A DNA stretch of 64,000 bases from Candidatus Latescibacterota bacterium (lineage in GTDB: Bacteria; Latescibacterota; UBA2968; GCA-2709665). Below, piece after piece: positions 8,543 through 31,715 of the stretch. How positions within the stretch are numbered: the stretch's first letter is position 1; every line of letters starts with the position of its first letter. The notes under the pieces are model-generated. The model saw only the letters and a program-made list of their open reading frames with translations. It did no database searches and was not told the origin of the DNA. The stretch spans positions 3,968,001 to 4,032,000 of the forward strand of contig OZ252100.1 in assembly GCA_965248435.1 (NCBI GenBank), read 5' to 3'. Both the position numbers and the translations under genes were made by a program.

Positions 8543-8662
8543 CCACAAGAAGGAATTGACATTGAAATAAATCCCCCCTGCCCCCCTTTTTCAAAGGGGG
8601 GACATTGCTCTAAATGATGTGGATTCTCTATTCAGAAAGCTAATACTTCCCCCTTTGTTAAA

Positions 8663-9984
8663 GGTTCTTCGTCAAATGTTGGGGTAGAAAATAGACGAGA
8701 CAACGGCATCCGACCTATCTTCAGAGTATCCTCTATAAACCTGAAGGTAGAAAGGAGAGCGCGTTGTCTCAGGTGCAAAGTATATCCTTACTGGGTAGGT
8801 GGCAAGGGTTTGTGGTAGTTGGCATTCAACGTCAGGAAGCAGACGTTGTTGGAGTCGAGTTACGTCCCAAGACAGGCCGCCTTCCTCGGTGTGGTGGTTG
8901 CGGGAAGAAGGCGTACCGGGTTCATGATTGGGCAGTGCGATTTGCTCAGGATTTGCCGATCTGGGGGTCTCGAACCAGGCTGATCGTGCACTCCCGGCGC
9001 GTCCTATGTCCCCGATGTGGCTGCCGGACGGAGCAGATTGACTGGCTGGATCGGTATTCACGGGTCACTCAACGCCTGGCTGAAAGTGTTGTTCGATTGT
9101 GCGAAGTCCTGCCCATCCAGCACGTGGCACAGCACTATGGGATGAGCTGGAATACCGTGAAGCGCATTCACAAGACCCATCTCCAGCAAGAGCTGGAACC
9201 GCCGGATTTTGCCAGGGTCACGGTGATCGGCATGGACGAATTTGCGATCCAAAAGGGCCATCGCTACGCCACAGTGATTGTTGACATGGAGACCAAGCGT
9301 GTCCTATGGGTGGGTCGCGGCCGAAGTCGAGAGGACATCCGCCCGTTTTTCCACCTCCTTGGAGAAGAAGGCTGCAAGCAACTTGAGGCCGTGGCGATGG
9401 ACATGAACGGTGCCTACGAAGAGGAGGTGCGATCCCATTGTCCGGATGTGGACATCATCTATGACCTGTATCACGTTAAAGCCAAGTACAACCGCGACGT
9501 CGTCGAGCGAGTACGCATCGACGAACTGGGTCGGGTGCGCGGTGGCCGACCCGATCGCAAAGTGACTCAGAACCAACGGTGGTTGCTCCTGCGCAGCAAA
9601 GCAAATGTCACGAGCAAAGAAGACAGAGTGTCGCTAAGAGAATTGCTTTCTGCAAACAAACGCCTCTACACGGTATACCTCCTCAAAGAGGATCTCAATC
9701 ATCTCTGGTCTTATCGATCCAGAGCTGCGGCCAACAGATTCTGGAATCAGTGGTATCGACGCGCCATCTACAGCAAGATCGAGCCACTCAAGAAATTCGC
9801 ACGCAATCTGAAGACGTATATGCCAGGAATCCTAGCTCACTGTGACTATCCCATCGGGACAAGCCTGATTGAGGGAATTAACAACAAAATCAAGGTCATC
9901 AAGCGGATGGCATATGGCTTCAGGGATGATAATTATTTCTTTCTTAGAATCCGCCACGCCTTCCCCGGAAATCGGTGATGAACC
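8663..9984 (+). mobile_element. ISL3-family insertion sequence (1322 bp)
   Basis: Ends GGTTCTTCGTCAAATGTTGGGG and CCCCGGAAATCGGTGATGAACC form an imperfect IR. 8-bp TSD TTGTTAAA at 8655-8662 and 9985-9992. Confidence 0.93.
8764..9978 (+). CDS. ISL3 family transposase
   Basis: Zinc finger CxxC...CPRC; IGMDEF, AMDM and YDLYHV; EGINNKIKVIKRMAYGFRD motif typical of ISL3. Confidence 0.93.
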   Translation: MSQVQSISLLGRWQGFVVVGIQRQEADVVGVELRPKTGRLPRCGGCGKKAYRVHDWAVRFAQDLPIWGSRTRLIVHSRRVLCPRCGCRTEQIDWLDRYSRVTQRLAESVVRLCEVLPIQHVAQHYGMSWNTVKRIHKTHLQQELEPPDFARVTVIGMDEFAIQKGHRYATVIVDMETKRVLWVGRGRSREDIRPFFHLLGEEGCKQLEAVAMDMNGAYEEEVRSHCPDVDIIYDLYHVKAKYNRDVVERVRIDELGRVRGGRPDRKVTQNQRWLLLRSKANVTSKEDRVSLRELLSANKRLYTVYLLKEDLNHLWSYRSRAAANRFWNQWYRRAIYSKIEPLKKFARNLKTYMPGILAHCDYPIGTSLIEGINNKIKVIKRMAYGFRDDNYFFLRIRHAFPGNR

Positions 9985-10147
9985 TTGTTAAAGGGGGATT
10001 GAGGGGGATTTCAAGATGCATCACTGCAGTGATGGTTAGGCGCGATATTTTTTGCGAGTTTCACAGACAGCATGCAACTTCAAGGTGGATTGTTCTTATT
10101 CGCCCCAAATGAGAAGAATCGCTTAATTTACGATCCAATATCGAATA

Positions 10148-11202
10148 GCTGGATTCAATGACTAAGTGCAACACTTGGACTTGAAGACTTCAGCTGGTGT
10201 TTTGAAGTTAAGACATTTTCTTGGTCGGTTGTTGATCCGGTTCTGAATTTTCTTTAACTCGTGTTTGCTGACCTTTGAGAAGTCTGTCTTCTTGGGGAGG
10301 TATCTGCGGACCAGACCGATAGCGTTTTCCACAGCGCCTCGCTCCCAGCTGTGGAACGGTTTGCAGAAATAGGATTTGGTGCCAAGCACCTCGTTGACCC
10401 GTTGATGTTGGCCGTTTTCGGATCCGTTGTCATATGTGATGCTCTTCCTCATGTGGGGAGGATGTCGCCCAAGGCGTCGATTAATCGCTTCGGCGACCTC
10501 CGAGGGTCCGTTCTTTGCCAGCTTAGCCAGGTGTAGGTATCTCGACGATCGCTCAAGACAAGCGCCAACGGCCTGTTTGCTCTCACGAGAGATGATGGTG
10601 TCGGATTCCCAGTGGCCAGGTTGTTTCCGTTTTTCGATGTAACGGGGACGTCGATCGATCGAAATACGGCCTGGAATGTGGCTTTCCCGGTGTTTTCGGG
10701 TATGCCACCGCGGCTTTCGTTTTTTGTGAGCTCGGGATAAGCAAGCAACCAGATCCCGCTGCTTGTGCACCTTTGGATCGTAGATATACTGGTAGATGGC
10801 TTCGTGGCTGATACCCGCGCTCGGACGCTCCTCGGGAAGCCTCCCAGCGATCAACTCGGGAGACCATCCTTGCTTGAGTTTGGTCTCGACATATCGCCGG
10901 ATAACCGGATTCTTCAGCCGTTTCCGCTTGCCGGCCTCCCGCTTACGTTTCTCAGCCCTTCTGTGAGCCTGGAGGCCCGAGTAACTCTCAGCTATCGGGG
11001 ACGGATTACGTTTCAACTCTCTTGAAATCGTGCTGGCGCTCCGGTCAAGGGCCTTGGCAATATCTCTAAGGCTTGCACCAGTGGCTCGACAAAGCGCAAT
11101 CTGCTCGCGTTCGTCTATCGTAAGATGCTTGTAATTGTTTCCCATACACTTAGGATAGGACAGTTGCTACCCTAAGTGTTGCACTTCCTTATTGAACTCG
11201 GG
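10148..11202 (-). mobile_element. IS30-family insertion sequence, copy 2 (intact, 1055 bp)
   Basis: Terminal IRs as in copy 1. 3-bp TSD ATA at 10145-10147 and 11203-11205. Confidence 0.93.
10162..11145 (-). CDS. IS30 family transposase
   Basis: N-terminal YKHLTIDER...IAKALDRSASTISRELKRN HTH, WSPELIAG, DDE motifs, NNRPRKCLNFKTP. Confidence 0.95.
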   Translation of the reverse strand: MGNNYKHLTIDEREQIALCRATGASLRDIAKALDRSASTISRELKRNPSPIAESYSGLQAHRRAEKRKREAGKRKRLKNPVIRRYVETKLKQGWSPELIAGRLPEERPSAGISHEAIYQYIYDPKVHKQRDLVACLSRAHKKRKPRWHTRKHRESHIPGRISIDRRPRYIEKRKQPGHWESDTIISRESKQAVGACLERSSRYLHLAKLAKNGPSEVAEAINRRLGRHPPHMRKSITYDNGSENGQHQRVNEVLGTKSYFCKPFHSWERGAVENAIGLVRRYLPKKTDFSKVSKHELKKIQNRINNRPRKCLNFKTPAEVFKSKCCT

Positions 11203-11244
11203 ATATCGAATGATCAAGGGCGATGAGAAAGGCAAGGACAGTTC

Positions 11245-12042
11245 ATGGAGAAAGAACTGCTGCACATGGAGGTCAACGGCTGGTGCATCCTCGAAGGTGT
11301 GATCCCACGAGATGACGTGGCCGCCGTGCGCCGGAGCGTCGAGGAAACCATCGCCCGGCACGGCCGGTCCGACGCGCCGGAGAACCTCGGCCACCTTCGC
11401 TCGATCATCAATTACGACCAGTCGTTTGCGCCCTACCTGGCCGACGAGCGCCTCCTCGGCATCGCGAGCGCCCTGCTCGGCCAGCACGTCCGGATCTCCT
11501 TCACAACCGCGATGGTCAACGGCCCCGGTGTAAAGCGGGGCGGCTGGCACGCCGACTGGCCCTTCAATCAGAAGAACGCGGGGCACATCCCCGCGCCCTA
11601 TCCCGACGCCGTGATGCACCTGACCACCCTCTGGATGCTTTCGGATTTCACCGGAGAAAACGGCGGCACTTTCATCCTGCCCGGCAGCCATCGCTCAGCA
11701 AACAACCCGACAGGAAACAACGGCGTCGACCCTGAGGCCTCCCTGCCGGGCGAGTTCCAGGTCACGGGGAATGCCGGTAGCATACTGGTCATGGACAGCC
11801 GGCTGTGGCACGCCATCGCCCCGAACACCTCAGACCGTCCACGCGTCGGTATGGCGATCCGGTATGCCCCCTGGTGGCTCAACCTGGACGTGCTATTACA
11901 CGGCTCGGACGAGCGGGCCCGGATGGTGGACGAACCGGGAGAGAAGGAAAACCTCAACTTTCCCGTGTCTCAGGAAGTCTTTGAAACTCTGCCCGACAAG
12001 GTGAAACCCCTATACCGACATTGTGTTGAAAGGAAGGATTGA
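11245..12042 (+). CDS. Phytanoyl-CoA dioxygenase (PhyH) family Fe(II)/2-oxoglutarate dioxygenase
   Basis: WHAD...ENGGTFILPGSH...AGSILVMDSRLWH...PNTSDRPR facial-triad pattern. Confidence 0.88.
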   Translation: MEKELLHMEVNGWCILEGVIPRDDVAAVRRSVEETIARHGRSDAPENLGHLRSIINYDQSFAPYLADERLLGIASALLGQHVRISFTTAMVNGPGVKRGGWHADWPFNQKNAGHIPAPYPDAVMHLTTLWMLSDFTGENGGTFILPGSHRSANNPTGNNGVDPEASLPGEFQVTGNAGSILVMDSRLWHAIAPNTSDRPRVGMAIRYAPWWLNLDVLLHGSDERARMVDEPGEKENLNFPVSQEVFETLPDKVKPLYRHCVERKD

Positions 12043-12043
12043 G

Positions 12044-13585
12044 ATGGATGGCGTCATCGACATCGGAAACCAGAAGCAGCTGTTCATCGACGACAAATGG
12101 TTCGCCTCCCAACGGGGCATGACCCTCACGGCCAACCCGCCCGTCAAAGCGGAACGGGTGCTTCGTTCGGAGAGACCGTGGGAGGTCCAGAGCATCTCCA
12201 CTGCCACCGTCCTTGAAGACGGCGGCGTCTACAAGATGTGGTACCGCTGCTCGGGCCCGGGCAGCAAGCAGACGGCCCCGCACGCCTGGACGATGATCTG
12301 CTACGCCGTGAGTGAGGACGGGCTCCACTGGGAACGGCAGAACGTCAACCTGTTCGAGTGGGAGGGGATCGCAGAGAACAACATCCTGATGCCGGGCGCG
12401 CACGGGGGCGTCACGATCGACCCGAACGGCCCGGACGAACACCGCTACAAGGCTTTGATCCGCGTCGTGGAAAACGACGTCTGGCCGGGCTCCAAGGGCG
12501 CGGTCTTCACCCTGCACGAGGGCAAGATGTGGTCCGAGCTCTACCTTGCCACGAGCCCGGACGGCATCCGCTGGCAGCGCCAGGAGCCCTCCGCGCTCCC
12601 GTTCTTTCACGACACGAACAACCAGCTCTTCTTCGACACGCGCCTGGGCAAATACGTCGCCTATGTCCGCACGCAGGCCAGGAAGCGGACGGTCGGCCGC
12701 GTCGAATTCGACGACCCGATGGACCTGCCCTGGCCGTATCGCGACAACCCCGACGCCCCGCGCGGTCCGGGACGCTCCCGCAGGGCGGCCGGCGGGGAGA
12801 TCCCGGTCGCCATCACTTGCGACGAGTCCGACCCGCCCGACACCGACCTCTACACCCCCTGCGTGCATCCATACCCATGGGCGGCGGACGCCTACTTCGC
12901 CTTCCCCTCGCCCTACCGGCACTACCCCGTCGGCGAGGTCTCCCTGAAACCGGGCAATCCGCCCGACCCGACGCTGAAGGGCCCCCTGGGAGACGAGCGG
13001 GGCGTCTACAGCAACTCCGGCCCGGTCGAGGTGCAGATGGCGGTCAGCCGGGATGGGATCGTGTTCTCCCGCCCCGACCGCCGCCCCTACGTTCCTCTCG
13101 GCCTGGTCGGGTCCTGGGACGGCGGCCAGACCTTCATGGGGCTCGGTATGATCCGAAAGGGAGATGAAATCTGGCAGTATTACCACGGCACAAAACGCCT
13201 CCACGGGGTGAAGGACAACCGCTCCGCGGACGGTGATGGTAGCATCTTCCGCCTCGTCCAGCGCCTGGACGGGTTCGTCTCCGCCGATGCCGACTACACG
13301 GGCGCGGAGTTCACCACGCCTCTGTTGGAGTTCTCCGGTTCCCACCTGCAACTGAACGCCGACTGCTCGGCGATGGGCGAGATCTGGGTCGAGATCCGGG
13401 ACGATCGGAATGTCCCGGTACCGGGCTACACGATGGAGGACACGATCAGCGTGGAACGCAACCAGACGGCTGCGCCCGTCGTCTGGCGGGAACGGGAGGA
13501 CGTCGCCGAACTGGTCGGCCGTCCCGTGCGCTTGCATTTCAAGCTGCGCGCGTGTAAGCTCTACGCGTTTCAATTTGCGGGGTAG
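12044..13585 (+). CDS. Beta-propeller glycoside hydrolase-like protein, second family, copy 1
   Basis: IGNQKQLFIDD N-terminus, YAVSEDGLHW, TSPDGIRW, VSRDGIVF, RLDGFVS and GRPVRLHF..KLYAFQF C-terminus; AAGGA RBS. Confidence 0.72.
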   Translation: MDGVIDIGNQKQLFIDDKWFASQRGMTLTANPPVKAERVLRSERPWEVQSISTATVLEDGGVYKMWYRCSGPGSKQTAPHAWTMICYAVSEDGLHWERQNVNLFEWEGIAENNILMPGAHGGVTIDPNGPDEHRYKALIRVVENDVWPGSKGAVFTLHEGKMWSELYLATSPDGIRWQRQEPSALPFFHDTNNQLFFDTRLGKYVAYVRTQARKRTVGRVEFDDPMDLPWPYRDNPDAPRGPGRSRRAAGGEIPVAITCDESDPPDTDLYTPCVHPYPWAADAYFAFPSPYRHYPVGEVSLKPGNPPDPTLKGPLGDERGVYSNSGPVEVQMAVSRDGIVFSRPDRRPYVPLGLVGSWDGGQTFMGLGMIRKGDEIWQYYHGTKRLHGVKDNRSADGDGSIFRLVQRLDGFVSADADYTGAEFTTPLLEFSGSHLQLNADCSAMGEIWVEIRDDRNVPVPGYTMEDTISVERNQTAAPVVWREREDVAELVGRPVRLHFKLRACKLYAFQFAG

Positions 13586-13655
13586 AGACGAGCGCGCGTC
13601 CCAACATCCTGTTTATGATCGCGCACGATCATCTGCGTGGAAAGGAGGGATTGAG

Positions 13656-15206
13656 ATGGGTAGCGTTATCGACATCGGAAACCAGAAGCAGCTCTTCATC
13701 GACAACAAATGGTTCTCCTCCCAGCGGGGCATGACGCTCACGGCCAACCCGCCCGTGAAGGCCGAACGCGTCTTCGTTCCGGAGAAGCCGTGGGAGTCCT
13801 CGAGAATCTCTCTCTCACCCACGATTCTCGAGGACGGTGGCATTTACAAGATGTGGTACCGCTGCTCGGGCCCGGGCAGCAAGGAGACGTCCCCGCACGG
13901 CTGGTCGATGATCTGCTACGCCGTGAGTGATGACGGGATCCACTGGGAGCGGCAGAACGTCAACCTGTTCGAGTGGGAGGGGATCGCAGAGAACAACATC
14001 CTGATGCCAGGCGCGCACGGGGGCGTCACGATCGACCCGAACGGCCCGGACGAACACAGATACAAGGCTTTGATCCGCGTCGTGGAAAACGACGTCTGGC
14101 CGGGCTCCAAGGGCGCGGTCTTCACCCGGCGCGAGGGGTGGGGGTGGTCGGAGCTCTATCTTGCCACGAGCCCGGACGGCATTCACTGGACGCGCCAGGA
14201 GCCCTCCGCGCTCCCGTTCTTTCACGACACGCACAACCACTTCTTCTTCGACGCCCGCCTGGACAAATACGTCGCCTATGTCCGCACGCACGCCAGGAAG
14301 CGGACCGTTGGCCGCGTCGAATTCGACGACCCGATGGACCTGCCCTGGCCCTATCACGACAACCCCGACGCCCCGCGCGGTCCCGGCCGCACCCGCAGGG
14401 AGGCCGGCGGCGAAATCCCGATCGCGCTTACCTGCGACGAGTCCGACCCGCCCGACACCGACCTCTACACCCCCTTCGTGCATCTATACCCCTGGGCGGC
14501 GGACGCCTATTTCGCATTTCCCTCCCCCTACCGGCACTACCCCGTCGGCGAGGTCTCCCTGAAGCCGGGCGATCCGCCAGACCCGACGCTGAAGGGCCCT
14601 TTGGGCGATGAGCGGGGCGTCTACAGCAACTCCGGCCCGGTGGAGGTGCACATGGCAGTCAGCCGGGACGGGATCGTGTTCTCCCGCCCCGACCGCCGAC
14701 CCTATGTTCCCCTCGGTTTGGTTGGCTCTTGGGATGCTGGCCAGACTTATATGGGACTCGGCATGATCCGGAAAGGGGACGAAATCTGGCAGTATTATCT
14801 TGCCATGGATCACGTTCACGGCCTGTTCGACAGGAACTCTGCGGACAGGGCTGGAGGCATCTGCCGCCTCGTCCAGCGCCTGGACGGGTTCATTTCCGCC
14901 GACGCGGACTACACCGGCGCGGAGTTCACCACTCCGCTCTTGGAGTTCTCCGGTTCCCACCTGCAACTGAACGCCGACTGCTCGGCGATGGGGGAGATCT
15001 GGGTGGAGATCCGGGACGATCGAAACGTCCCGGTGCCAGGCTACACGATGGAAGACTCAGTCAGCGTTGAGCGCAACCAGACGGCCGCACCCGTCGTCTG
15101 GCGGGAGCGGGAGGACGTAGCAGAACTGGTCGGCCGTCCCGTACGCCTGCATTTTAAGCTCCGGGCCTCCAAACTCTACGCGTTTCACTTTGCGGAGAAG
15201 AGATGA
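13656..15206 (+). CDS. Beta-propeller glycoside hydrolase-like protein, second family, copy 2
   Basis: Tandem near-identical paralog of 12044-13585; AGGAGG RBS before the ATG at 13656. Confidence 0.72.
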   Translation: MGSVIDIGNQKQLFIDNKWFSSQRGMTLTANPPVKAERVFVPEKPWESSRISLSPTILEDGGIYKMWYRCSGPGSKETSPHGWSMICYAVSDDGIHWERQNVNLFEWEGIAENNILMPGAHGGVTIDPNGPDEHRYKALIRVVENDVWPGSKGAVFTRREGWGWSELYLATSPDGIHWTRQEPSALPFFHDTHNHFFFDARLDKYVAYVRTHARKRTVGRVEFDDPMDLPWPYHDNPDAPRGPGRTRREAGGEIPIALTCDESDPPDTDLYTPFVHLYPWAADAYFAFPSPYRHYPVGEVSLKPGDPPDPTLKGPLGDERGVYSNSGPVEVHMAVSRDGIVFSRPDRRPYVPLGLVGSWDAGQTYMGLGMIRKGDEIWQYYLAMDHVHGLFDRNSADRAGGICRLVQRLDGFISADADYTGAEFTTPLLEFSGSHLQLNADCSAMGEIWVEIRDDRNVPVPGYTMEDSVSVERNQTAAPVVWREREDVAELVGRPVRLHFKLRASKLYAFHFAEKR

Positions 15207-16564
15207 GTGCCCGTCCCAACATCCTGTTTGTCATTGCAGACGATCACCGTTTCAACGCGATCCGCGCCTTTGGGGATCCGACGGTCCAGACTCCGGTTCT
15301 GGACCGCCTTGCCGGAGACGGCGTGGCCTTCCGGAAGGCGCACATGATGGGCGGGCCTCTGGGGGCCGTGTGCGTCCCCAGCCGAGCCTGCCTGCACACG
15401 GGTGCGAACGTCTTCCGGGCCTCCTGCAGCCGCGAGGTCGATGACGACCAGAACGTCAAGATCCTCAATCCAGACCTGGCGCTCCTGCCTGAGGTCTTTC
15501 GTCAGGCTGGCTATCACACCTTTGCCACCGGCAAGTGGCACAACGACAAACAGAGCTTTGCGAGAGGGTTTTGCAGCGGGGGGCGCGTCTTCTTCGGCGG
15601 TATGAGCGACCACCTGAAAGTGCCCGTCCACGACTTCGACACAGAGGGCATCTACCCTGACGAAAGCATATACACAGGTGAAAAATTCTCGACCGAACTG
15701 TTCACCGACGCTGCGATTGAATTTCTCCAGGGGTACGATAAGAGCGATCCGTTCTTCTTATATCTGGCTTTTACCTCACCGCACGACCCGCGGATGGCCC
15801 CTGACGAATACGCCAAGCTCTACGACCCGGAGGCCATCCCCCTCCCCGAAAACTTCCTGCCCGAACACCCGTTCGACAACGGCGAGCTGAAGATCCGCGA
15901 CGAGGAACTCGCCCCCTTCCCCCGCAGCCCTGACGTGATCCGTCGGCACATCGCGGACTACTACGCGATGATCACCCATCACGACGCCCACATCGGCCAT
16001 CTGCTGGATACCCTGGAGGCGTCCGGTCGCGCCGACGACACGCTGATCGTTTATACCGCCGACCACGGCCTTGCGGTGGGCCAGCACGGCCTGATGGGGA
16101 AACAGAACATGTACGACCACAGCGTCCGCATCCCCCAGATCCTCCACGGTCCGGGCGTCCCTCAGGGCAAAGAGATCCACGCGCTCACCTACCTTTACGA
16201 CCTCTATCCCACCCTTTGCGAGCTGTCCGGGATCCCGATCCCGGACAGCGTCGAAGGCCACAGCCTGGTCCCCGTGCTGACCGGCGAGCGGGAACGCATC
16301 CGTGACAGTGTATGCTCCGTCTACAAGGACCTTCAGCGCATGGTCAGCGACGGCCGCTGGAAGCTGATTCGATACTACAGGTCCGGCGATGCGGGGACTG
16401 ACCGCATCCAGCTCTTCGACCTGGAATCGGACCCCTGGGAGACCCGGGACCTCTCGGAGGCGCCAAAACAGCAGGAACGCATCCGGGGACTTGCGGACAA
16501 GCTCGCCGCCTGGCAGGCAGAGGTCGACGACCCCCTGGCTGGACTCCAGATCATTCCCGATTGA
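15203..16564 (+). CDS. Sulfatase (Cys-type, choline-sulfatase-like)
   Basis: RPNILFVIADD, CVPSRACLHTG, GKWH, ADHG. Overlaps the upstream stop (ATGA). Confidence 0.9.
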   Translation: MSARPNILFVIADDHRFNAIRAFGDPTVQTPVLDRLAGDGVAFRKAHMMGGPLGAVCVPSRACLHTGANVFRASCSREVDDDQNVKILNPDLALLPEVFRQAGYHTFATGKWHNDKQSFARGFCSGGRVFFGGMSDHLKVPVHDFDTEGIYPDESIYTGEKFSTELFTDAAIEFLQGYDKSDPFFLYLAFTSPHDPRMAPDEYAKLYDPEAIPLPENFLPEHPFDNGELKIRDEELAPFPRSPDVIRRHIADYYAMITHHDAHIGHLLDTLEASGRADDTLIVYTADHGLAVGQHGLMGKQNMYDHSVRIPQILHGPGVPQGKEIHALTYLYDLYPTLCELSGIPIPDSVEGHSLVPVLTGERERIRDSVCSVYKDLQRMVSDGRWKLIRYYRSGDAGTDRIQLFDLESDPWETRDLSEAPKQQERIRGLADKLAAWQAEVDDPLAGLQIIPD

Positions 16565-21670: not shown

Positions 21671-21728
21671 CCAAAAAAGGCAAATGGTGTTGACATTGAG
21701 AGAAATCCCCCCTGCCCCCCTTTGTAAA

Positions 21729-22238
21729 GGTTCTTCGCCGAATGTTGGGGTTAGGCCATCAAGCTCTATTTGTAGAACTCGCCAGCTAGCCAGCGTCCCT
21801 GTAACTCAGGAGATGCATAGCTCAAAGCCATCAGGGCCGCGGTGTGCGACTTACCGTGCAACAAGGGGATTTCACCTCCCGGCGGGTTGGTTTTCAGTGA
21901 TCGCGAGCGTGTGGTGAGGATGTGGCCCACCTGCCATGATTGTTTTTTCCACTGAGGGTAAGGTGCCGCGGCCCGAGCCCCCCCGGCGTTTGAGGGGCGC
22001 CTTTCTTTTGCCTACTTTTCTTGTGGCGTGACAAGAAAAGTAGGCCGCCGGAGGCATGGTCTTATTTCTGGTTCTCGCGATACAACCCACCCCGCCCCTT
22101 CGGGGCACCCCTCCCAGGAGGGGACGGATTGTGCAGCCCCGGAGACATCGTCATTGCAGAGCGGAGCAAACGGCTTTGGAGTCAGAGAACATCGTCTCGA
22201 GATACGCCACGCCTTCCCCCGGAAATCGGTGATGAACC
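21729..22238 (+). mobile_element. Non-autonomous ISL3-derived element (510 bp) with structured non-coding cargo
   Basis: Left end GGTTCTTCGCCGAATGTTGGGGT. Right end CGCCACGCCTTCCCCCGGAAATCGGTGATGAACC is almost identical to the ISL3 end at ~9952-9984. No transposase ORF. Confidence 0.85.
21770..22059 (+). ncRNA. Candidate structured RNA inside the ISL3-ended element (copy 1)
   Basis: Nested stems conserved with 31204-31505; 15-bp hairpin at 22010-22045. Expression is not shown. Confidence 0.5.
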
Positions 22239-22406
22239 TTTACAAAGGGGGAGGTTGCTCTTTCTGAAAGAATACCTATCCATGAATAGATTCTTCACCC
22301 TTTGGAAAGGGGGATTGAGGGGGATTTCAAAACGCATCGAATCCTTTTTCCACGACACACCACAGCCCTAAATATTTTCGCCACAGTACGTTAGGAGAAA
22401 CGAATC

Positions 22407-23621: not shown

Positions 23622-23624
23622 AAG

Positions 23625-23814
23625 GGCCCTCACCCTGCCTCGCGGAGTTTATCCCGAGCCTGTCGAGGGGCTCGGCATCCCTCTCCCATAAATGGGAGAG
23701 GGAAGAAGCATGCTGCGTAACCCTCTCCCCTCTCCCACGTGTGGGTGAGAGTACATACTGATGAAACAGTTATGCGAGCACTGAAACGAGGGAGCGGGGC
23801 CGGGGGTGAGGGCC
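23625..23814. repeat. Palindromic repeat GGCCCTCACCC...CCCTCTCCC-n-GGGAGAGGG...GGGTGAGGGCC
   Basis: Same family as 33692-33763 and 35770-35875; carries extra nested sequence. Confidence 0.8.
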
Positions 23815-23906
23815 TTCAGCAATACCCAATATCTAATAATCAAAGAAGAGGTTACCGTGACACTAGCCGTGAAGAGATGTCAGTTTTCATCACAAGGAGG
23901 ATAACA

Positions 23907-24662
23907 ATGAGCACAGAACCGATCAAACAGGACACAGACGGGAACGGGATTCCAACCTACACGCTGTTTCCTCCGGCGGAAGATCGGCCGAAATATTCTA
24001 CTGAGGTGGAATCGGAGGCGGAGTTTCTGGGAGAAATCCGCGAGCCGCAGGTCTTCGAGACGGAGCACCACGTCTACACGGTTCCGTTCCGATACCGGAA
24101 CGTGAAGGTGGAAAACTTCCTGACACGAGGCGGCGGGAAGGGGATCGAACTGGCCGCGGAGATGGGGGCGATTACGATAGAGGAGGAGAAGCCGATCGTC
24201 TCAGTAACGGTCGTCGGATCGGGATGCTCCGGGAAGAACTACAACATCGTGGAGTGGTGGGGACCCGGAGAGGACATCAATAATTTGCGCAAGCTCCAGA
24301 AACTGGTGAAGAGACAGCGCGTGGACAACATGAACGGGCAACACAATGCCTGGATCCAGACGGCGCTGACCGAGGAGCCGCCTGAGTTCGAGACCGCAGA
24401 GGAGGGCAGAGATTACATCAAGAAGATCCAGAAGATCTTCTACAACATGACGAGCGGCTACAGCGTGCCAGGCAGCGTGATGAGCGGACTGTATGAGAAC
24501 ACGGCCTATTTCAGGATCGGGGACACGTCGCGTCCCGAGAATACGGTCACTCGGGTCGTCATCCGTGGAGGAGGCCTGGACTACGAAGATCCGGGCGGCA
24601 AGATCGCGCGATATCCCGCGGACTACACGTTCAGGCTGATCGATCTTGTTGTCAGAAAATAG
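23907..24662 (+). CDS. Hypothetical protein (251 aa)
   Basis: AAGGAGG RBS before ATG 23907, acidic soluble composition, followed by a terminator. No family recognised. Confidence 0.7.
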   Translation: MSTEPIKQDTDGNGIPTYTLFPPAEDRPKYSTEVESEAEFLGEIREPQVFETEHHVYTVPFRYRNVKVENFLTRGGGKGIELAAEMGAITIEEEKPIVSVTVVGSGCSGKNYNIVEWWGPGEDINNLRKLQKLVKRQRVDNMNGQHNAWIQTALTEEPPEFETAEEGRDYIKKIQKIFYNMTSGYSVPGSVMSGLYENTAYFRIGDTSRPENTVTRVVIRGGGLDYEDPGGKIARYPADYTFRLIDLVVRK

Positions 24663-24697
24663 GAGAGAATCGCTCCTAAAGTAAGACAGAGGGGAAA

Positions 24698-24747
24698 AGA
24701 AATCGCCGGGAGAGGCTGACGCAAACCTCCCGGCGATTTTCTTTTTT
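24698..24747 (+). terminator. Rho-independent terminator
   Basis: AAATCGCCGGGAG...CTCCCGGCGATTT stem followed by TCTTTTTT. Confidence 0.8.
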
Positions 24748-24917
24748 CGCCAACTGTAGATCGAGGATATATTACCTTGCTTCGCACCACAGACACACTC
24801 CGACCTTGTGTGTGATCCCCACCCTGTTGGTCAGCGGAGAGAGTTTCACAACTTGATACTAAACAGCAACTTATATCTTTATCTCTCAGCCCGCCAACTC
24901 TGAGTTTGGGAGAAAAA

Positions 24918-26903
24918 GTGGCATCCAACATCCCTGAAGCGATCCGGCCCAAAACGGAGGTCGCAACTGACCATCCTCCAGAGCGAGTGACACCGCGTGC
25001 GTTCGTTTTGGGGCTCGTGACGATCGTTGCGATGTGCATCTTCTCGGAGAACTATGGGAGAGGCCTAGTAAGAAGCTTCATGCCGATGCCGGCGCTGCTG
25101 ATGTTCATGGTGTGGATCGCGATCAACCTGGTGCTCAAGAGCGCCTACCCGCGCGTCGCGCTGTCCCGCACTGAAGTGCTGACGATCTTCGGCATGGCGT
25201 GGCTGGTCGGCACGCTCCCGGGCCTTGGCCTGGTCGGCTATCTGATGCGCAATGTCGCGGGTCCGGCTTACTACTCGACCCCTGAAGACCGGTTCTGGGA
25301 GGTCGTGGGGTTTTACGTCCCAAGGTTCCTATTGTTCGAACAGGATAACCCGGCCGTAAGGCCCTACTATCTCGGGCTGCGTGCGGGCGAGGTGATTGCC
25401 TGGGAAGCGTGGTTCGTCCGGCTTTACTGGTGGTTCGTGGGGATCTTGAGTGTGGTGATGGCCGGATTCTTCGCAAGCGTGATCTTTTACAGACAGTGGG
25501 CGGACAAAGAGCGACTCGTCTTTCCTCTGGCGACCTTTCCGGTGGAGTTGCTGCAGGAATCAGAGGCGAGTCGATTACCCGACTTTGTCAGGAATCCGGT
25601 CTTTTGGCTCGGGTTTGCCACGACGTTCGGGCTCCTCGCGTGGAACGTGGCGGGTTGGTTCGTTCTCACTTTGCCCCGGATCAGCCTCTATGACCATTAT
25701 ATCTTCAAGAATGTCTTGATTGCCCGGGATTTCCCTCCGTTGAACGTTCGCTTCCACGCCTTCATCATTGGCCTGGCCTATCACTGTCCTCTGAACATCC
25801 TGTTCAACATCTGGTTTTTCTACCTCTTGAATATTTTAAAAGAAGGGATCATGAACAGGACCGGGTTCTCTGTCGGTCTGGAAGGCCAACCCGCCGACCC
25901 AAGAGACATCTTGACGCTGGAGAGCCACGGGGCCCTGGTGGTGCTGGTGCTCTGGTCTGTGTGGGTCGCAAGAGGTCATCTGAAAGAGACGTTTCAAAAG
26001 GCTTTTCTAAGTCGCCGTCACGAGGATGATGGGGCCCCGGTCTCTTATCGAACGGCTTACCTGGGTTTCCTCGGGGCCGCGATCTTTCTACTGGGCTGGC
26101 TGATGGCGGTTGGCTTCAGTCTGCCCGTAGCCCTCCTCCAGATGTCCCTGTTGTTTATCATCTACTTCGCAATGGCGAAGTATGCCGCAGCAACGGGGTT
26201 CATCTTCCTCCGGGTCCCCGGGAGTAAGGGCACGTTGATCCTGAAGTCCATCCTCGGGACGGAGAACTTCTCGTCATCCAACCTGGTGGGTTTTGTGATC
26301 GTGGAGCGAAATTCGTTCGCCGGGGCGACGGCCCGGATGCTGGCGATTCCAGGGATTTGCCACGTGTTTCGAATGCTGGGTAACGCACTCCGACGGCATC
26401 CGCTGATTTCGCTTGCACTTCCTGCCGCGCTGATCACTGGCTACACCGCCCAGTGCTGGACGCACCTCTACAACAGCCACACGGAAGGCGGGATGAACGT
26501 CGCCTTCAGCGGGGCCGGAGCCGCCATGCTGGGCCTGGTACCACAGATAGAGGGGAGCGATCGGACGGTCTTCGATACGGAGAAGCTGATCGTCTGGGGG
26601 GTCGGGGTTGCTGAGGCCGCCCTGTTCATATTGTTGGGAACGCGATTTTCCAGCTGGCCGATTCATCCGGTGGGGTTGGCTTTTCCAACCCGCTACGGGT
26701 TCAGCGTGTTCCTGACCTGGCTGCCGAAGTTCATCATCCTCCGGTTCGGCGGGGTGGCCATGTATCGAAAATCTGTTCCCTTCTTTTATGGCCTCATCGT
26801 CGGGTATATCATGGCCGTTTGGTTCTATGCAATCGTCGACATCATCTTCTTTCCCTTCGTACGCGGATACGGGACCGCTCACGGCCTGCCACATCACTGG
26901 TAA
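24918..26903 (+). CDS. DUF6785/DUF6784-type membrane protein, array copy 1
   Basis: ~660 aa polytopic protein; RQWADKERLVFPL, WPIHPVG, RFGGV..YRK motifs. GTG start after GGGAG. Confidence 0.78.
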   Translation: MASNIPEAIRPKTEVATDHPPERVTPRAFVLGLVTIVAMCIFSENYGRGLVRSFMPMPALLMFMVWIAINLVLKSAYPRVALSRTEVLTIFGMAWLVGTLPGLGLVGYLMRNVAGPAYYSTPEDRFWEVVGFYVPRFLLFEQDNPAVRPYYLGLRAGEVIAWEAWFVRLYWWFVGILSVVMAGFFASVIFYRQWADKERLVFPLATFPVELLQESEASRLPDFVRNPVFWLGFATTFGLLAWNVAGWFVLTLPRISLYDHYIFKNVLIARDFPPLNVRFHAFIIGLAYHCPLNILFNIWFFYLLNILKEGIMNRTGFSVGLEGQPADPRDILTLESHGALVVLVLWSVWVARGHLKETFQKAFLSRRHEDDGAPVSYRTAYLGFLGAAIFLLGWLMAVGFSLPVALLQMSLLFIIYFAMAKYAAATGFIFLRVPGSKGTLILKSILGTENFSSSNLVGFVIVERNSFAGATARMLAIPGICHVFRMLGNALRRHPLISLALPAALITGYTAQCWTHLYNSHTEGGMNVAFSGAGAAMLGLVPQIEGSDRTVFDTEKLIVWGVGVAEAALFILLGTRFSSWPIHPVGLAFPTRYGFSVFLTWLPKFIILRFGGVAMYRKSVPFFYGLIVGYIMAVWFYAIVDIIFFPFVRGYGTAHGLPHHW

Positions 26904-26907
26904 AAGG

Positions 26908-27035
26908 CCGGGTACCGGGTACCGTAAAACACAGAATTCTAAAAGTCATGATTTTTGTTGGTTTTCGAACCCCGGTACCCTGTACCCGGTACCCGGATTT
27001 CAAGGGGTAAATTGGAATCGAGCATTGCACATAGG
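26908..27035. repeat. Intergenic element with inverted (CGGGTAC)n / (GTACCCG)n heptamer arms
   Basis: Near-identical to 29021-29147. Partial copies near 31678-31738, 37878-37906, 18100 and 43424. Confidence 0.8.
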
Positions 27036-28994
27036 GAGATGCATCCCGAGACGGACACCGTTCCAGGGCGACCTCGGGAGCGGGTGACAGGCCGGGCCTT
27101 CGTGCTCGGCCTGATCACGATTGTGGCCATGTGTCTCTTAAGCGAGAACTATGGTAGGGGCCTGATCAGAAGCAATATGCCCGTTCCGGCGCTGCTCATG
27201 TTTACGCTTTGGTTCGGGATCTACATTCTGCTCAAGTTGACTCTTCCACGGCTGGCACTGTCCCAAACCGAGCTTTTGACCATTTTCGGGATGGCCTGGC
27301 TCGTCGGGACGCTGCCGGGCCTCGGTGTGGTGGGCTACTTGATGTTCGAGGTCACGGCTCCGGCCTATTTCTCGACGCCCGAGGACCGGTTCTGGGAGGT
27401 GGTGGGGCTCTATCTACCCAGATTCCTTTTGTTCGATCAGGGTAACCCGGCCGTGGCGACCTACTACCTCGGACTTCGCCCGGGAGAGGCGATTGTCTGG
27501 AGCGAGTGGTTTTTTCGGCTCTACTGGTGGTTTGTCGGGCTCTCGAGTCTGGCGCTGGCGGGGTTTTTTGCCAGTGTCGTCTTCTACAGGCAGTGGGCGG
27601 ATAAGGAGCGGCTCGTGTTTCCGCTGGCGACCTTTCCGGTCGAGCTCCTTAAGGAATCCGCGGGGAATCGACTGCCTGATGTGCTCAGAAACCTGGTGTT
27701 CTGGGCGGGGTTTGCTTTTACGTTCGGGATTCTCGCGTGGAATGTGGCGAGGTACTTCATCCTTGACCTACCCCGAATCACCTTGTTCGATCATGAGACC
27801 TTTAAGAACATCACTCTCGCTCGAGACTTTCCGCCCCTCAATGTGCGCGTTCACCCATTTATCATCGGACTGGCCTATCATGCTCCCCTAAACATCCTGT
27901 TCAACATCTGGTTTTTCTATGTTCTGAATATTTTGAAAATAGGACTGATGAATGTAACCGGATTCTCTGTCGGCCTCGAAGGCCAACCGGCAGCGCCAAG
28001 AGATATCACGACGTTGGAGAGTCACGGCGCGCTCGTAGTCCTTGTGATCTGGTCTGTGTGGATCGGAAGGGGCCATCTGAGGGAGACGTTCCAGAAGGCC
28101 TTCTTTTTCCGTCGTGCCGAAGACGACGGTGCTCCAGTGACCTACCGAACGGCCTACCTCGGTTTTGTCTGCGCTGCCATTTTTCTGTTGGGATGGCTAG
28201 TGTCGACCGGGTTCAGCCTGCCGTTTGCCCTTCTGCAAATGGCCCTGCTTTTCGTTATCTACTTCGGGACGGCAAAATATCTCGCGGCCACCGGGTTCAT
28301 CTCCCTGAGGGTTCCGGGGAACAAAGGCGCCGTGATTCTTCGGTCCATTATCGGGATTAGAAATCTCTCCCCGTCCAACCTTGTGGGCGTGAAGATGGTC
28401 GATATAAATGGCTTCGCGGGCACGACCTCCCGGATGCTGTCGATTCCCGGGATCCCGCACCTTTTTCGTATGCTCGGGACGGCTTTGAAGCGGCATCCCC
28501 TGATTTCACTCGCGCTGCCTGCGGCACTCATCACCGGTTTCACCGCCCAGTGTTGGGCACATCTAGACCTCAGCCACAGGGAAGGCGGCATGAATGTCGC
28601 CTTCACCGGGATGCGAATGCTGGACCTGGTCTCTCAAATCGGCGGGAGCGGCCAGTCTACCTTCGATGTCCAGAAGCTGCTCGTCTGGATCGTGGGGGCG
28701 GCTGAAGCCTGTCTGTTCACCTTCCTTGGGACGAGGTTCACAGGATGGCCGATTCATCCCGTGGGCCTGGCCTTCCCCACCTACTACGGATTCAGCGTTT
28801 TCCTCGTCTGGCTGCCCAAGATCATCATCCTTAGACTCGGCGGGGTGCTGCTCTATCGCAGGTCGGTTCCCTTCTTTTATGGGATGATCGTCGGGTACCT
28901 AGTGGGTATCTTGTACGCGGCCGCTGTGGATATCATTTTCTTTCCCTCCGTCCGCGGATATGGGACCTTCCACGGCTTGCCTCACCATGACTAA
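27012..28994 (+). CDS. DUF6785/DUF6784-type membrane protein, array copy 2
   Basis: Paralog. TTG start inferred from the MESS N-terminus of copies 4-6 and a GGGGT RBS. Confidence 0.78.
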   Translation: MESSIAHREMHPETDTVPGRPRERVTGRAFVLGLITIVAMCLLSENYGRGLIRSNMPVPALLMFTLWFGIYILLKLTLPRLALSQTELLTIFGMAWLVGTLPGLGVVGYLMFEVTAPAYFSTPEDRFWEVVGLYLPRFLLFDQGNPAVATYYLGLRPGEAIVWSEWFFRLYWWFVGLSSLALAGFFASVVFYRQWADKERLVFPLATFPVELLKESAGNRLPDVLRNLVFWAGFAFTFGILAWNVARYFILDLPRITLFDHETFKNITLARDFPPLNVRVHPFIIGLAYHAPLNILFNIWFFYVLNILKIGLMNVTGFSVGLEGQPAAPRDITTLESHGALVVLVIWSVWIGRGHLRETFQKAFFFRRAEDDGAPVTYRTAYLGFVCAAIFLLGWLVSTGFSLPFALLQMALLFVIYFGTAKYLAATGFISLRVPGNKGAVILRSIIGIRNLSPSNLVGVKMVDINGFAGTTSRMLSIPGIPHLFRMLGTALKRHPLISLALPAALITGFTAQCWAHLDLSHREGGMNVAFTGMRMLDLVSQIGGSGQSTFDVQKLLVWIVGAAEACLFTFLGTRFTGWPIHPVGLAFPTYYGFSVFLVWLPKIIILRLGGVLLYRRSVPFFYGMIVGYLVGILYAAAVDIIFFPSVRGYGTFHGLPHHD

Positions 28995-29020
28995 CGAGCG
29001 CGTACCGGGAAACCAAAACA

Positions 29021-29147
29021 CGGGTACCGGGTACCGTAAAAGACAGAATTTTAAGAGTCAGGATTTTTGTTGGTTTTCGAACCCCGGTACCCTGTACCCG
29101 GTACCCGGATTTCAAGGGGTAAATTGGAATCGAGCATTGCACATAGG
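29021..29147. repeat. Second copy of the heptamer-armed intergenic element and leader
   Basis: Direct repeat of 26908-27035. Confidence 0.8.
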
Positions 29148-31027
29148 GTGATGCAACCCGAGCCGGTCGCCGATCCAGGGCGACCTCCCGAGCGCGTGAC
29201 GCCACGTGCGTTCGTCCTGGGGCTCGTGACGATCGTCGTGATGTGCATCTTCTCGGAGCACTACGGGAGGGGCCTTGTCAGGAGCTTCATGCCGATGCCG
29301 GCTCTGCTGATGTTCATGGTGTGGATCGCGATCAATCTGGTGCTCAAGAGCGCATATCCGCGCGTGGCGCTGTCTCGTACAGAGATCCTTATGATCTTTG
29401 GCATGACCTGGCTGGTCGGAACGCTCCCGGGTCTTGGTCTGGTCGGCTACCTGATGCATTACGTCACGGGTCCGGCCTATTTCTCCACGCCCGAAGACCG
29501 CTTCTGGGAGGTCGTGGGGCTCTACGTCCCGGAATTTCTCCTGTTCGAGCAGGGTAGCCCGGTCGTGGGGCCCTACTATCTCGGACTGCGCGTAGGTGAG
29601 GTAATTTCCTGGGAAGCGTGGTTCGTTCGCCTCTACTGGTGGTTCGTGGGGATCTTGAGCGTGGTGATGGCAGGATTCTTTGCAAGCGTGATCTTTTACA
29701 GGCAATGGGCGGACAAAGAGCGGCTTGTCTTCCCTCTGGCGACTTTTCCTGTGGAGCTGCTTCAGGAATCAGAGGAGAGTCGGCTGCCGGGCTTCGTCAG
29801 GAATCCCATCTTCTGGATCGGGTTTGCGACGACGTTTGGGCTCCTCGCCTGGAACGTGGCGGGCTGGTTCATTCTCGATTTGCCCCGGATGTCACTCTAC
29901 GATCATCGTGACTTCAAGTATATCCTGATTGCCCGTGATTTCCCTCCCCTGAACGTTCGCGTACACCCCTTTATCATTGGCCTGGCTTATCACTGTCCGT
30001 TGAACATCCTTTTCAACATCTGGTTCTTCTATCTCTTGAGTATTCTCAAACAAGGGATCATGAACCGGACCGGGGTCTCTGTCGGGGTGGAAGGCCAACC
30101 CGCCGACCCGAGAGACATCCTGACACTGGAGAGCCACGGGGCCCTGGTGGTGCTGGTGCTCTGGTCCGTGTGGGTCGCGAGAGGTCACCTGAAAGAGACG
30201 TTTCAAAAGGCCTTCCTGAGTCGCCGTCACGAGGATGATGGGGCTCCGGTATCCTACCGAACGGCCTACCTCGGTTTCCTCGGGGCCGCGATTTTTCTCC
30301 TGGGCTGGCTGATGACGGTCGGCTTCAGCCTGCCCGTGGCCCTTCTGCAGATGTCCCTGTTGTTCATCATCTACTTCGGGATGGCGAAGTACGCGGCAGC
30401 AACGGGGTTCATCTTCCTCCGGGTCCCGGGAGGAAAGGGCACGTTGATCCTGAAGTCAATCCTCGGGACGGAGAAATTCTCGCCATCCAACCTGGTGGGT
30501 TTGGTGGTCGTGGAGCAAAACGCGTTTGTAGGTTCCACGGCGCGGATGCTGGCGATTCCCGGGATCTCCCACGTCTTTCGAATGCTGGGTAGTGCCCTGC
30601 GTCGGCATCCACTGATCTGGCTTGCCCTGCCTGCCGCTCTCATCACGGGCTACACCACCCAGTGCTGGACACACCTCTACAACAGCCACACGGAAGGCGG
30701 GATGAACGTCGCCTTCAGCGGGATCCCGGGGGCCATGCTGGGCCTGGTCTCAGATATCGAGGGGACCGACCCCACGGTCTTCGACGTCGAGAAGCTGACC
30801 GTCTGGGGGGTCGGAGTCACGGAGGCCGCCCTGTTCATACCTGGCTGCCGAAGATTATCATCCTCCGATTCGGCGGGGTGGCCCTGTATCGAAAGTCTGT
30901 TCCTTTCTTTTACGGCCTTATCGTCGGATATATCATGGCCGTCTGGTTTTATGCCACCGTCGACATCATGTTCTTTCCTTACGTGCGCGGATACGGGACC
31001 GCTCACGGCCTGCCTCATCACTGGTAG
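29124..31027 (+). pseudogene. DUF6785/DUF6784-type membrane protein, array copy 3 (frameshifted)
   Basis: Relative to copy 1, ~85 bp are missing at 30839/30840 (equivalent to 26631-26715), removing WPIHPVG. The true C-terminus (TWLPK...GLPHHW) is in another frame ending at 31027. Confidence 0.8.
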
Positions 31028-31161
31028 AAAGCCGTCGTTCGTCGGTAATCAATTTCTGATCATTATCGGGAAATCCCCCTCAGTCCCCCTTTGTTAAAGG
31101 GGGAGGATTCTACTCCGGAGGTGAGTACTCTTTCAGCTAAGTAATGTTCCCCCTTTGGAAA

Positions 31162-31602
31162 GGTTCTTCGCCGAATGTTGGGGTTAAGGTATTAAGCTCT
31201 AATTGTAGACTCGCCCGCTTGCCGGCGTCTCTGTAACTCGCGAGATGCATCGCTCAAAGTCATCAGGGCCGCGGTGTGCGACTCCGATGCAACCTCGTTC
31301 TTTCACCTCCCACGCGGTTAGGCCCTCTGGGCCGGTCCCATAGTGGGCGTTCTGTGGGGCAGGAGTCCCGCCCTGATTGCCGCCCCCGTCCTTTCCACTG
31401 AGGGTGAGGTGCCGCGGCCCGAGCCCCCGCGGCGTTTGAGCGGCGCCCTTCTTTTGTCTACTTTTCTTGTGGCGAGACAAGAAAAGTAGACCGCCGGAGG
31501 CATGGGGTTCTTGGGTGGGGCGAACAGCCTAGGGAGCAAGGAGAGATAGCCACTTTTTTCTCGAAATCTGCTCATGACCTCCCCTAAATTCGGTGAAGAG
31601 CC
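31162..31602 (+). mobile_element. Non-autonomous ISL3-derived element (441 bp) with structured non-coding cargo
   Basis: Left end GGTTCTTCGCCGAATGTTGGGGT, right end CCCCTAAATTCGGTGAAGAGCC. Perfect 8-bp TSD TTTGGAAA at 31154-31161 and 31603-31610. Confidence 0.87.
31204..31505 (+). ncRNA. Candidate structured RNA inside the ISL3-ended element (copy 2)
   Basis: Blocks and stems conserved with 21770-22059; 15-bp hairpin at 31456-31491. Confidence 0.5.
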
Positions 31603-31715
31603 TTTGGAAAAGGGGGGTAGCGGGGATTTGAATTTCGGGAAGAGCGGTGACGCCTAATTCGTTTGATGGGTGTGGCAGAACCCCGGTACCCGGTACCCGG
31701 ATTTCAAGAGGTGAA

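Follow-up and report, generated by a model that had tools for sequence, protein, structure and literature searches.

An ISL3-family insertion sequence and its MITE-like partners occupy the apices of a REP-like hairpin repeat family in a Candidatus Latescibacterota genome

In the genome of a Candidatus Latescibacterota bacterium (assembly GCA_965248435.1), every full-length copy of an insertion sequence (IS) of the ISL3 family lies in a hairpin of one repeat family that resembles repetitive extragenic palindromic (REP) sequences. In the stretch under analysis (contig OZ252100.1, positions 3,968,001 to 4,032,000; 64,000 nucleotides, called the window here), one complete IS and two elements resembling miniature inverted-repeat transposable elements (MITEs) each split the TTT-n-AAA centre of a CCCCC/GGGGG hairpin, inside a two-hairpin repeat, or doublet, of ~110 bp. 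Both the placement of the copies and the independence of the insertion events support the original prediction, made from the window alone, that an ISL3 element targets this hairpin family site-specifically. The site specificity is real, sharply delimited and not due to chance, and with it ISL3 joins the known class of IS that occupy REP-like palindromes.

The anatomy of the three window sites was obtained by direct reading of the three regions, which confirmed the predicted coordinates of the elements at hairpin apices within doublets. At site 1, doublet 8569-10011 holds the full IS at 8663-9984 (+ strand, 1322 bp, termini GGTTCTTC...GATGAACC), whose transposase open reading frame runs from 8764 to 9978 (+ strand, 404 aa, start TTG). 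The left part of this doublet (8569-8662) comprises an end module AAATCCCCCC-TG, a first hairpin (H1), a spacer, the left arm CCCCC of the second hairpin (H2; 8649-8653) and the first copy of the duplication, TTGTTAAA (8655-8662), the left flank reading CCCCC-T-TTGTTAAA. The right part (9985-10011) comprises the second TTGTTAAA (9985-9992), the GGGGG right arm of H2, which gives a right flank of TTGTTAAA-GGGGG (9985-9997), and the end module ATTGAGGGGGATTT. At site 1 the insertion duplicated 8 bp from the apex of a CCCCCTTTGTTAAAGGGGG hairpin. At site 2, a 510-bp MITE-like element without a transposase gene (21729-22238, + strand) lies between CCCCCC-TTTGTAAA and TTTACAAA-GGGGG within doublet 21703-22327. 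Here the left part (21703-21728) supplies the end module AAATCCCCCC-TG, the CCCCCC left arm of H1 and TTTGTAAA, and the right part (22239-22327) supplies TTTACAAA-GGGGG as the right arm of H1, a spacer, a degenerate second hairpin CACCCTTTGGAAAGGGGG and an end module. The flanks of this element are the two arms of the hairpin and do not form a direct repeat, differing by two mismatches with the central two bases reverse-complemented; at the left it begins as other MITEs do, and its final 37 bases match the right terminus of the IS to 95%. At site 3, doublet 31071-31629 holds a 441-bp MITE-like element (31162-31602, + strand, ends GGTTCTTCGCCGAATGTTGGGG / GGCTCTTCACCGAATTTAGGGG) with the direct duplication TTTGGAAA on both sides. 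The left part (31071-31161) consists of the end module AAATCCCCC-TCAGT, an empty hairpin, a spacer, the left arm CCCCC (31149-31153) and the first TTTGGAAA (31154-31161); the right part (31603-31629) consists of the second TTTGGAAA (31603-31610), an extra A, the GGGGGG right arm and the variant end module TAGCGGGGATTT. The 441-bp element has a 97%-identical copy elsewhere in the genome and several more at 87-91%.

The hairpins are intergenic at all three window sites. The predicted empty sister hairpin of doublet 3 (CCCCCTTTGTTAAAGGGGG, 31085-31103) is present, and a second one, H1 of doublet 1 (CCCCCCTTTTTCAAAGGGGGG, 8581-8601), was found. The suggestion that the GG/CC termini of the elements partly rebuild a hairpin at the insertion point was likewise borne out, each junction being itself a small hairpin in which these termini continue the palindrome.

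The whole genome (5.67 Mb, 2 contigs) was then searched for full copies by BLAST and for element ends by a scan for end motifs with up to 3 mismatches. Ten full-length copies of the IS were found, with pairwise differences of 0-3 of 1323 aligned columns, and all ten lie in family hairpins. One side is always a C-run/TTT... arm, and the other is either an ...AAA/G-run arm or, in 2 copies, the end of a second element in the same hairpin. The placement that would have spoken against targeting, with most copies in non-hairpin A/T sites, is therefore not what the genome contains. When all 63 ends were mapped against the hairpins, 38 fell at a hairpin arm under a strict pattern and 9 under a loose one (by eye, seven degenerate arms and two doubtful cases), 8 at another ISL3-type end and 8 elsewhere. 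Among 23 paired elements, 10 have a perfect 8-bp duplication, all of them in hairpins, 5 have one mismatch and 8 have two or more; the duplication is perfect in five of the ten full copies. The genome offers 18,700 TTNNNNAA sites and 1,258 TTTNNAAA sites as background, against an estimated ~63 family hairpins (43 empty and about 20 occupied) that provide one register or two apiece. The probability that nine independent hits placed at random all fall in family hairpins is about 6e-23 to 3e-20. A high share of copies in one palindromic family, the hallmark of an REP-targeting IS, is what this genome displays.

The unit that is hit has the layout AAATCCCCCC-TG-(C6 TTT..AAA G6)-spacer of about 45 bases-(C5 TTT..AAA G5)-ATTGA-GGGGGATTT. 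An A-type end has a TG or TA linker and 6-base runs, and a B-type end a TCAAT or TCAGT linker and 5-base runs. The pattern C4+ T3-5 N0-4 A3-5 G4+ found 43 empty hairpins, and arm-reversed or non-complementary controls found 3, 0 and 0. There are 68 end modules (AATCCCC-linker-CCCC-TT): 42 continue into a hairpin that is empty, 17 meet an ISL3-type end and 9 show other changes. They pair as 15 doublets and 2 single-hairpin units, both of the latter empty. An ISL3-type element is present in 9 of the 15 doublets (five full IS and four MITE-like elements), an unrelated IS in one, and five are empty. The claim that every doublet is occupied thus holds for the three in the window and fails genome-wide.

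The surroundings of the full copies tell whether a single insertion was amplified or many took place. Over the 92 bases just outside the duplication, identity between copies is 43-86% (median 59%, 45 pairs), with one pair at 100%. In 6 copies the IS has its left end beside the repeat's end module, in 4 its right end, and the A-type hairpin holds nine full copies and the B-type one, which is the window copy. The duplications also vary from copy to copy (TTTGCAAA, TTTGTAAA, TTTACAAA, TTGTTAAA, TTTCCAAA, TTTGGAAA, CTATCAAA). Because near-identical IS lie in dissimilar flanks, in both orientations and with differing duplications, the full copies are separate recent insertions and not one amplified event. 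Later duplication of one event, which the original prediction had listed as fatal to its claim, accounts for one pair only. That pair goes back to genome position 3,785,098, where the IS and a 1486-bp element occupy one hairpin together with three copies of TTTACAAA. Since one hairpin was hit twice there, the second insertion must have used a half site in which the C-run and the octamer were joined to the GG contributed by the element already there. The 2.8-kb pair (IS plus 1486-bp element), with two left ends as its bounds, moved to 3,935,173, where it lies in an A-type hairpin with the duplication TTTCCAAA.

These same data bear on the idea that the IS was a passenger, having entered one doublet once and then been spread by a mobile, MITE-like doublet, with no targeting by ISL3 at all. 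The doublet family does look mobile, with its 68 modules here and a sporadic occurrence across the phylum, and the IS copies at 3785098 and 3935173 have an identical right flank. Against the idea, the IS copies are at least 99.8% identical in flanks of 43-86%, the IS lies in two orientations relative to the doublet and in two hairpin types, and its duplications differ. The shared right flank is explained by composite transposition, which made its own duplication in a new hairpin. We consider a passenger origin extremely unlikely.

Within the family, not all hairpins are equally used. A-type modules are occupied in 14 cases and empty in 11, whereas B-type modules are occupied in 3 and empty in 31 (Fisher p = 1.1e-4); 6-base C-runs are found in 25 of 27 A-type modules and 5-base C-runs in 38 of 41 B-type modules. 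An 8-base centre, which places the cuts exactly at the C/T and A/G boundaries, is found at 4 of 10 sites with perfect duplications and in 1 of 52 empty hairpins (p = 0.0017), 40 of the 52 having a 9-base centre. Hairpins with 6-base arms and an 8-base centre are therefore preferred, and the pattern would fit a saturation of the best sites.

All of these observations make it very probable that the ISL3 transposase inserts the IS, and its MITE derivatives in trans, at an A/T octamer bracketed by G/C tracts. The target here would be the TTT-n-AAA apex of the CCCCC(C)/GGGGG(G) hairpins of the REP-like family. A transposase acting as a symmetric complex on both element ends could capture the rigid G/C tracts around a deformable A/T core of, ideally, exactly 8 bp; two strand transfers would follow with an 8-bp stagger, ideally right where C-run meets T and A meets G-run, and repair would duplicate the octamer. 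Copy location, 8-bp duplications, independence of events, arm and centre preference and half-site re-use are direct observations on the genome. The independence of the events, the site preferences and the same choice in other genomes (see below) suggest that the choice is made by the transposase itself, and not by selection after insertion. As to what is recognized, the half-site insertion and the one-sided GC context of related elements favour a reading of duplex sequence or shape, while an extruded hairpin may be the target in view of stem potential, the one feature that all the relatives' sites have in common, and of the biased orientation of MITE-like copies. Landing in intergenic hairpins would presumably be harmless, the "safe harbour" of the original prediction, which would explain the persistence of ten near-identical copies.

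The main competitor is selection alone, in which insertion occurs at any A/T-rich octamer and copies survive just in neutral intergenic hairpins. The intergenic position of the window hairpins agrees with this, as do the older, diverged MITE-like copies found at other A/T-rich sites. Yet many of the 18,700 TTNNNNAA sites are intergenic too, against about 63 hairpins, and near-identical copies are recent, with little time for purging. Selection, moreover, would not tell 6- from 5-base arms or 8- from 9-base centres, and the same choice was made in two unrelated genomes. Selection as the sole cause is, in our judgement, very unlikely.

Several points nevertheless weigh against targeting by the transposase as set out here. 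Eight of the 63 ends lie outside hairpins, mostly in diverged MITE-like copies. A perfect direct duplication is missing from five of the ten full copies and from the 510-bp element. Related genomes yielded no precise empty allele. The data are compatible with recognition both of duplex sequence or shape and of an extruded hairpin, and selection after insertion is formally compatible with evidence from genome sequences.

In three cases of mismatched duplications the central bases are reverse-complemented between the two sides: TTTGTAAA / TTTACAAA in the 510-bp element, TTTGTAAA / TTTAC-G-AAA in one full copy, and TTTAGAAA / TTTCTAAA on one metagenome contig. Crossover between IS copies was considered as the full cause and is insufficient, as the left octamers of the five mismatched copies cannot be turned into the right ones by mere reshuffling. 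Such octamers could stem from template switching that inverts the loop, or from gene conversion between homologous doublet flanks.

The search for empty alleles, a check suggested with the original prediction, did not deliver a precise one. A same-genus genome (G001) is syntenic at all three window sites, with flanking genes at 79-95% identity, but its intergenic DNA there is unalignable and without doublets, and no exact empty site can be read from it. Contigs from four public sequencing runs over window positions 8300-10300 contain joints that skip the IS (8611>9989/9990 and 8661>10002). We rejected these as empty alleles: their sides are short, they show differences and they have no exact empty-site junction, and we read them as paralogous doublets. 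Two other public runs contributed, in small shares, family hairpins that abut ISL3-type MITE ends and the TGTACAG-ended IS described below, which we take as a lead only.

The inverted flanks raise the question of whether the arms belong to the element at all, either as long terminal repeats or, with the empty hairpins as scars, as products of IS excision. Besides flanks that are inverted rather than direct (the TTTGTAAA / TTTACAAA and TTTAGAAA / TTTCTAAA pairs above), the GG/CC termini that extend the palindrome would be in keeping with such an origin. Relatives with the same GGTTCTTC...GAAGAACC ends, however, lack the arms and lie in plain A/T runs, and direct 8-bp duplications in 10 elements set the boundary at GG...CC. 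Empty centres mostly have 9 bases (40 of 52), not the 8 or 16 expected from precise or imprecise excision. Finally, one genome has 52 modules with no junctions and no ISL3 detected with this query, and another has 97 modules and one IS. That the arms are part of the element, or the empty hairpins its scars, is scarcely credible on this evidence, and targeting of a pre-existing hairpin remains our preferred explanation.

Related elements in other genomes mostly use another kind of site. Among one-genome-per-species contigs, the closest transposases are 48-64% identical and come from many phyla, and the termini of their elements are conserved (GGTTCTTC...GAAGAACC). Both flanks were available at 47 loci, 29 of which have a duplication with at most 1 mismatch; in 24 of these 29 the octamer has A or T at 7 or more of its 8 positions and is usually a T- or A-run. 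A perfect GC-rich stem of at least 5 bp adjoins 17 of the 29 sites, compared with 141 of 800 random positions in the same loci, and with all sites turned to their T-rich strand, G+C amounts to 68-93% at positions -8 to -2, the background being 63%. For the most part, then, these sites resemble Rho-independent terminators, with T-runs beside GC-rich stems. We infer that the transposase reads a composition or shape boundary that terminators also offer; terminators would give one G/C-A/T boundary and the hairpin family two.

The hairpin choice itself recurs in two distant genomes. One belongs to Geomonas, where the context of the element is AAATCCCCCCTGTCCCCCC-T-TCGCAAAA / IS / TCGCAAAA-GGGGGGG; in the other, an Omnitrophota metagenome-assembled genome, the element occupies one of the two hairpins of a doublet bearing the A-type and B-type ends seen here. 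These genomes have 97 and 35 modules, respectively (0 for a reversed-pattern control), and one copy each from this clade of elements, in both cases in a family hairpin. Five genomes whose relatives lie at T-runs have 0, 0, 0, 1 and 0 modules. Metagenome contigs matched the junction CCCCCTTTNNAAAGGTTCWTC 36 times, with 25 different termini, and some of these matches are probably due to chance; in 8 of the 36, an end module that the pattern does not specify is found in the flank, next to different ISL3-type termini.

Orientation with respect to replication differs between the two kinds of element. With origin and terminus placed by GC skew, MITE-like copies genome-wide point against the moving fork in 51 cases and along with it in 13 (p = 1.9e-6), the counts outside one cluster being 30 and 13, whereas the full IS copies show no bias (4 against, 6 with). 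A bias against fork movement has been reported for ISL3 elements (PMC3971601), and the MITE-like copies here resemble it.

A bolder interpretation, which we regard as unlikely but which touches several of these features, is that transposases of this clade read no base sequence but a structural ruler, consisting of two G/C tracts or stems around an easily opened 8-bp A/T core that is possibly extruded at the replication fork, and that the hairpin repeat is a spreading landing pad. Such a ruler would account for the relatives' use of terminator T-runs, for the orientation bias among MITE-like copies and for central dinucleotides being inverted in some duplications. If so, the AAATCCCCCC-linker-CCCCCC repeat, which occurs sporadically in at least three distant lineages, would be a landing pad that spreads horizontally and on which ISL3-type elements could multiply without harm.

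The assignment of the IS itself rests on its domains and its architecture. ISL3 elements have terminal inverted repeats, an 8-bp A/T-rich target duplication and a size of about 1.2-2 kb. The transposase matches DDE_Tnp_ISL3 (PF01610) with E 6.9e-66 over 240 of 240 profile positions, and also PF13542 (E 3.4e-15) and PF14690 (E 1e-9), so that an N-terminal Zn_ribbon_ISL3 and an HTH_Tnp_ISL3 domain accompany the catalytic one. The termini are imperfect inverted repeats, GGTTCTTCGTCAAATGTTGGGG / GGTTCATCACCGATTTCCGGGG (the right end also given as ...CCCCGGAAATCGGTGATGAACC), and duplication and size agree as well; the IS belongs to the ISL3 family. One copy (G000:C1:2192096-2193418; G000 is this genome and C1 one of its contigs) has one extra base, which splits the transposase frame into residues 1-130 and 123-404.

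The 441-bp element has the features of a MITE, namely IS-like ends, no transposase gene, an 8-bp duplication (TTTGGAAA) and several copies. Related copies of 429, 422 and 509 bp have perfect duplications, whereas the flanks of the 510-bp element are mismatched. The 1486-bp element (G000:C1:3786428-3787913, with a copy at 3936503-3937988) is an ISL3-type MITE carrying an IS30-family transposase gene (HTH_38 and rve domains, 327 aa), and the same protein occurs again at 4966092-4967075. At G000:C1:2244274-2244280 and 3815324-3815330, a right and a left MITE end stand head to tail with the same 5 bases (TGTAA) between them, which looks like a tandem dimer or a circle-junction relic that was copied later. 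Between G000:C1:4,927,000 and 5,038,000, an interior module of the MITE-like elements (positions ~60-340) occurs 26 times in about 110 kb, always on the minus strand. These 26 copies are mostly without ISL3 ends and are intergenic, between ordinary metabolic genes of mixed orientation.

The target repeat has the shape of REP sequences and REP doublets forming hairpins (REPINs), being a short GC-rich intergenic palindrome in many copies that are often arranged as inverted pairs. Empty units fold as single strands at -50 to -57 kcal/mol, with a z of about -8 (RNA energy parameters). A link to REP-associated tyrosine transposases was rejected: the genome has five Y1_Tnp hits, and neither a hairpin nor a module lies within 1.5 kb of any of them. 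The repeat is therefore best named REP-like or MITE-like, and not REP.

B-type modules number 37 here and at most one in each of the 40 nearest genomes. Of 168 genomes from the phylum, just two have the A-type module in quantity: this one (24) and a distant one, G063 (52). The latter has no match to this transposase and no junctions, but it is a draft of 270 contigs in which absence is unproven. The IS itself is in none of the 40 nearest genomes, two of which have ISL3 elements that are only 33% identical. As G063 has the modules without a transposase match or junctions, the repeat spreads without this IS, and the IS does not create the repeat; an obligatory co-spread of hairpin family and IS was rejected on the same ground, with the same caveat about the draft.

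Two further features of the hairpins were seen. An unrelated, single-copy IS of 1306 bp (G000:C1:3641372-3642677), which ends in TGTACAG...CTGTACA and encodes an integrase-core transposase, has the 3' arm of a B-type hairpin in another doublet as its site; a second type of IS has therefore also landed in the family. In sub-variant hairpins, one G/C arm is replaced or extended by an insert of ~27 bases of the type GCATGTCCCGAGCTTGCCGAGGGAGGGG, itself a small stem-loop, as found on G000:C1 near 2419729, 2611868 and 4911975 and directly to the right of two IS copies (3599146 and 3799220).

The occupation of REP sequences by IS has precedents in other families. Tobes & Pareja (2006, PMC1525189) list REP-targeting elements of the IS3, IS110, IS4, IS256 and IS5 families, and their text makes no mention of ISL3. 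Their examples include IS1397 and ISKpn1 (IS3 family), which insert in the REP units within bacterial interspersed mosaic elements (BIMEs) of enterobacteria, and, as REP occupants, ISPpu9, ISPpu10, ISPa11 and IS621 (IS110) and ISRm22 (IS4); their Table 2 gives 7/7, 7/7, 6/6 and 10/10 copies in one palindromic family for REP occupants. For IS1397 and IS621, target choice by the transposase has been demonstrated experimentally. Like IS1397 and ISKpn1, for which that source attributes the choice to the transposase, the element described here has a DDE transposase and copies in a repeated intergenic palindrome. It differs from them in belonging to ISL3, in having a single reading frame with a Zn ribbon and a helix-turn-helix, in an 8-bp duplication that spans the apex, and in a target that is no enterobacterial REP and has no link to a REP-associated Y1 protein. 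With ISPpu9, ISPpu10, ISPa11, IS621 and ISRm22 it has in common that all or nearly all copies are in one palindromic family (10/10 here), but unlike the IS110 family, which has no terminal inverted repeats and another recombination chemistry, it has inverted repeats and an 8-bp duplication.

Measured against its own family, relatives of 50-60% identity included, the IS is ordinary in its domains, its ~1.3 kb size, its GGTTCTTC-type ends and its 8-bp A/T-rich duplication. What sets it apart from relatives at T-runs by terminator-like stems is the TTT-n-AAA target between the C and G tracts of one repeat family. The target, for its part, resembles REP/BIME sequences and REPINs in its short intergenic GC-rich palindromes, often inverted pairs with a spacer, and in its strong folds. 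It is unlike them in having only 68 modules, no Y1_Tnp nearby and extended imperfect terminal repeats, and with modules in three distant lineages it is more MITE-like than REP or REPIN.

The literature searched, from which ISfinder and TnCentral stood apart, contained no published ISL3 element specific for REP-like or hairpin targets, and in the accessible portions of PMC10214660 and PMC10433421 work on REP appears merely in the reference lists. In Enterococcus faecium, an ISL3-linked insertion with an 8-bp duplication lies about halfway through a terminator (PMC11702846), and a 2026 survey describes terminator-like sequences as enriched upstream of several IS families (PMC13548323). The boundary reading proposed here would give a concrete reason why ISL3 relatives lie beside terminators, a pattern that this survey notes statistically. 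The present case also brings an apparent 8-bp ruler, a preference for arm length, half-site re-use, MITE partners and a choice that recurs in distant genomes. A classic cut-or-copy DDE element with a near-absolute site choice, an apparent 8-bp ruler between two G/C tracts and natural MITE partners would be a tractable system for questions of target selection, and the case illustrates that small repeat families can shape the sites at which mobile DNA accumulates.

Two minor observations concern the window itself. No Rfam family reached its gathering score anywhere in it, MITE interiors included. The interiors of the two MITEs (21942-22059 and 31420-31500) contain a palindromic repeat of ~110 bases with a perfect 15-bp stem, GCCTACTTTTCTTGT...ACAAGAAAAGTAGGC. 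It is matched about 40 times in G001, the genome from the same genus, and about 10-30 times in G002, and because it is so frequent there, the host lineage has a second, older repeat family that came to lie inside ISL3-type MITEs. Lastly, short heptamer runs of the GGTACCC/GGTTCGG type (ccccggtacccggtacccgg) are found at 31680-31700, upstream of the gene at 31647, and in G001 the heptamer array is longer at the same place in the orthologous spacer.

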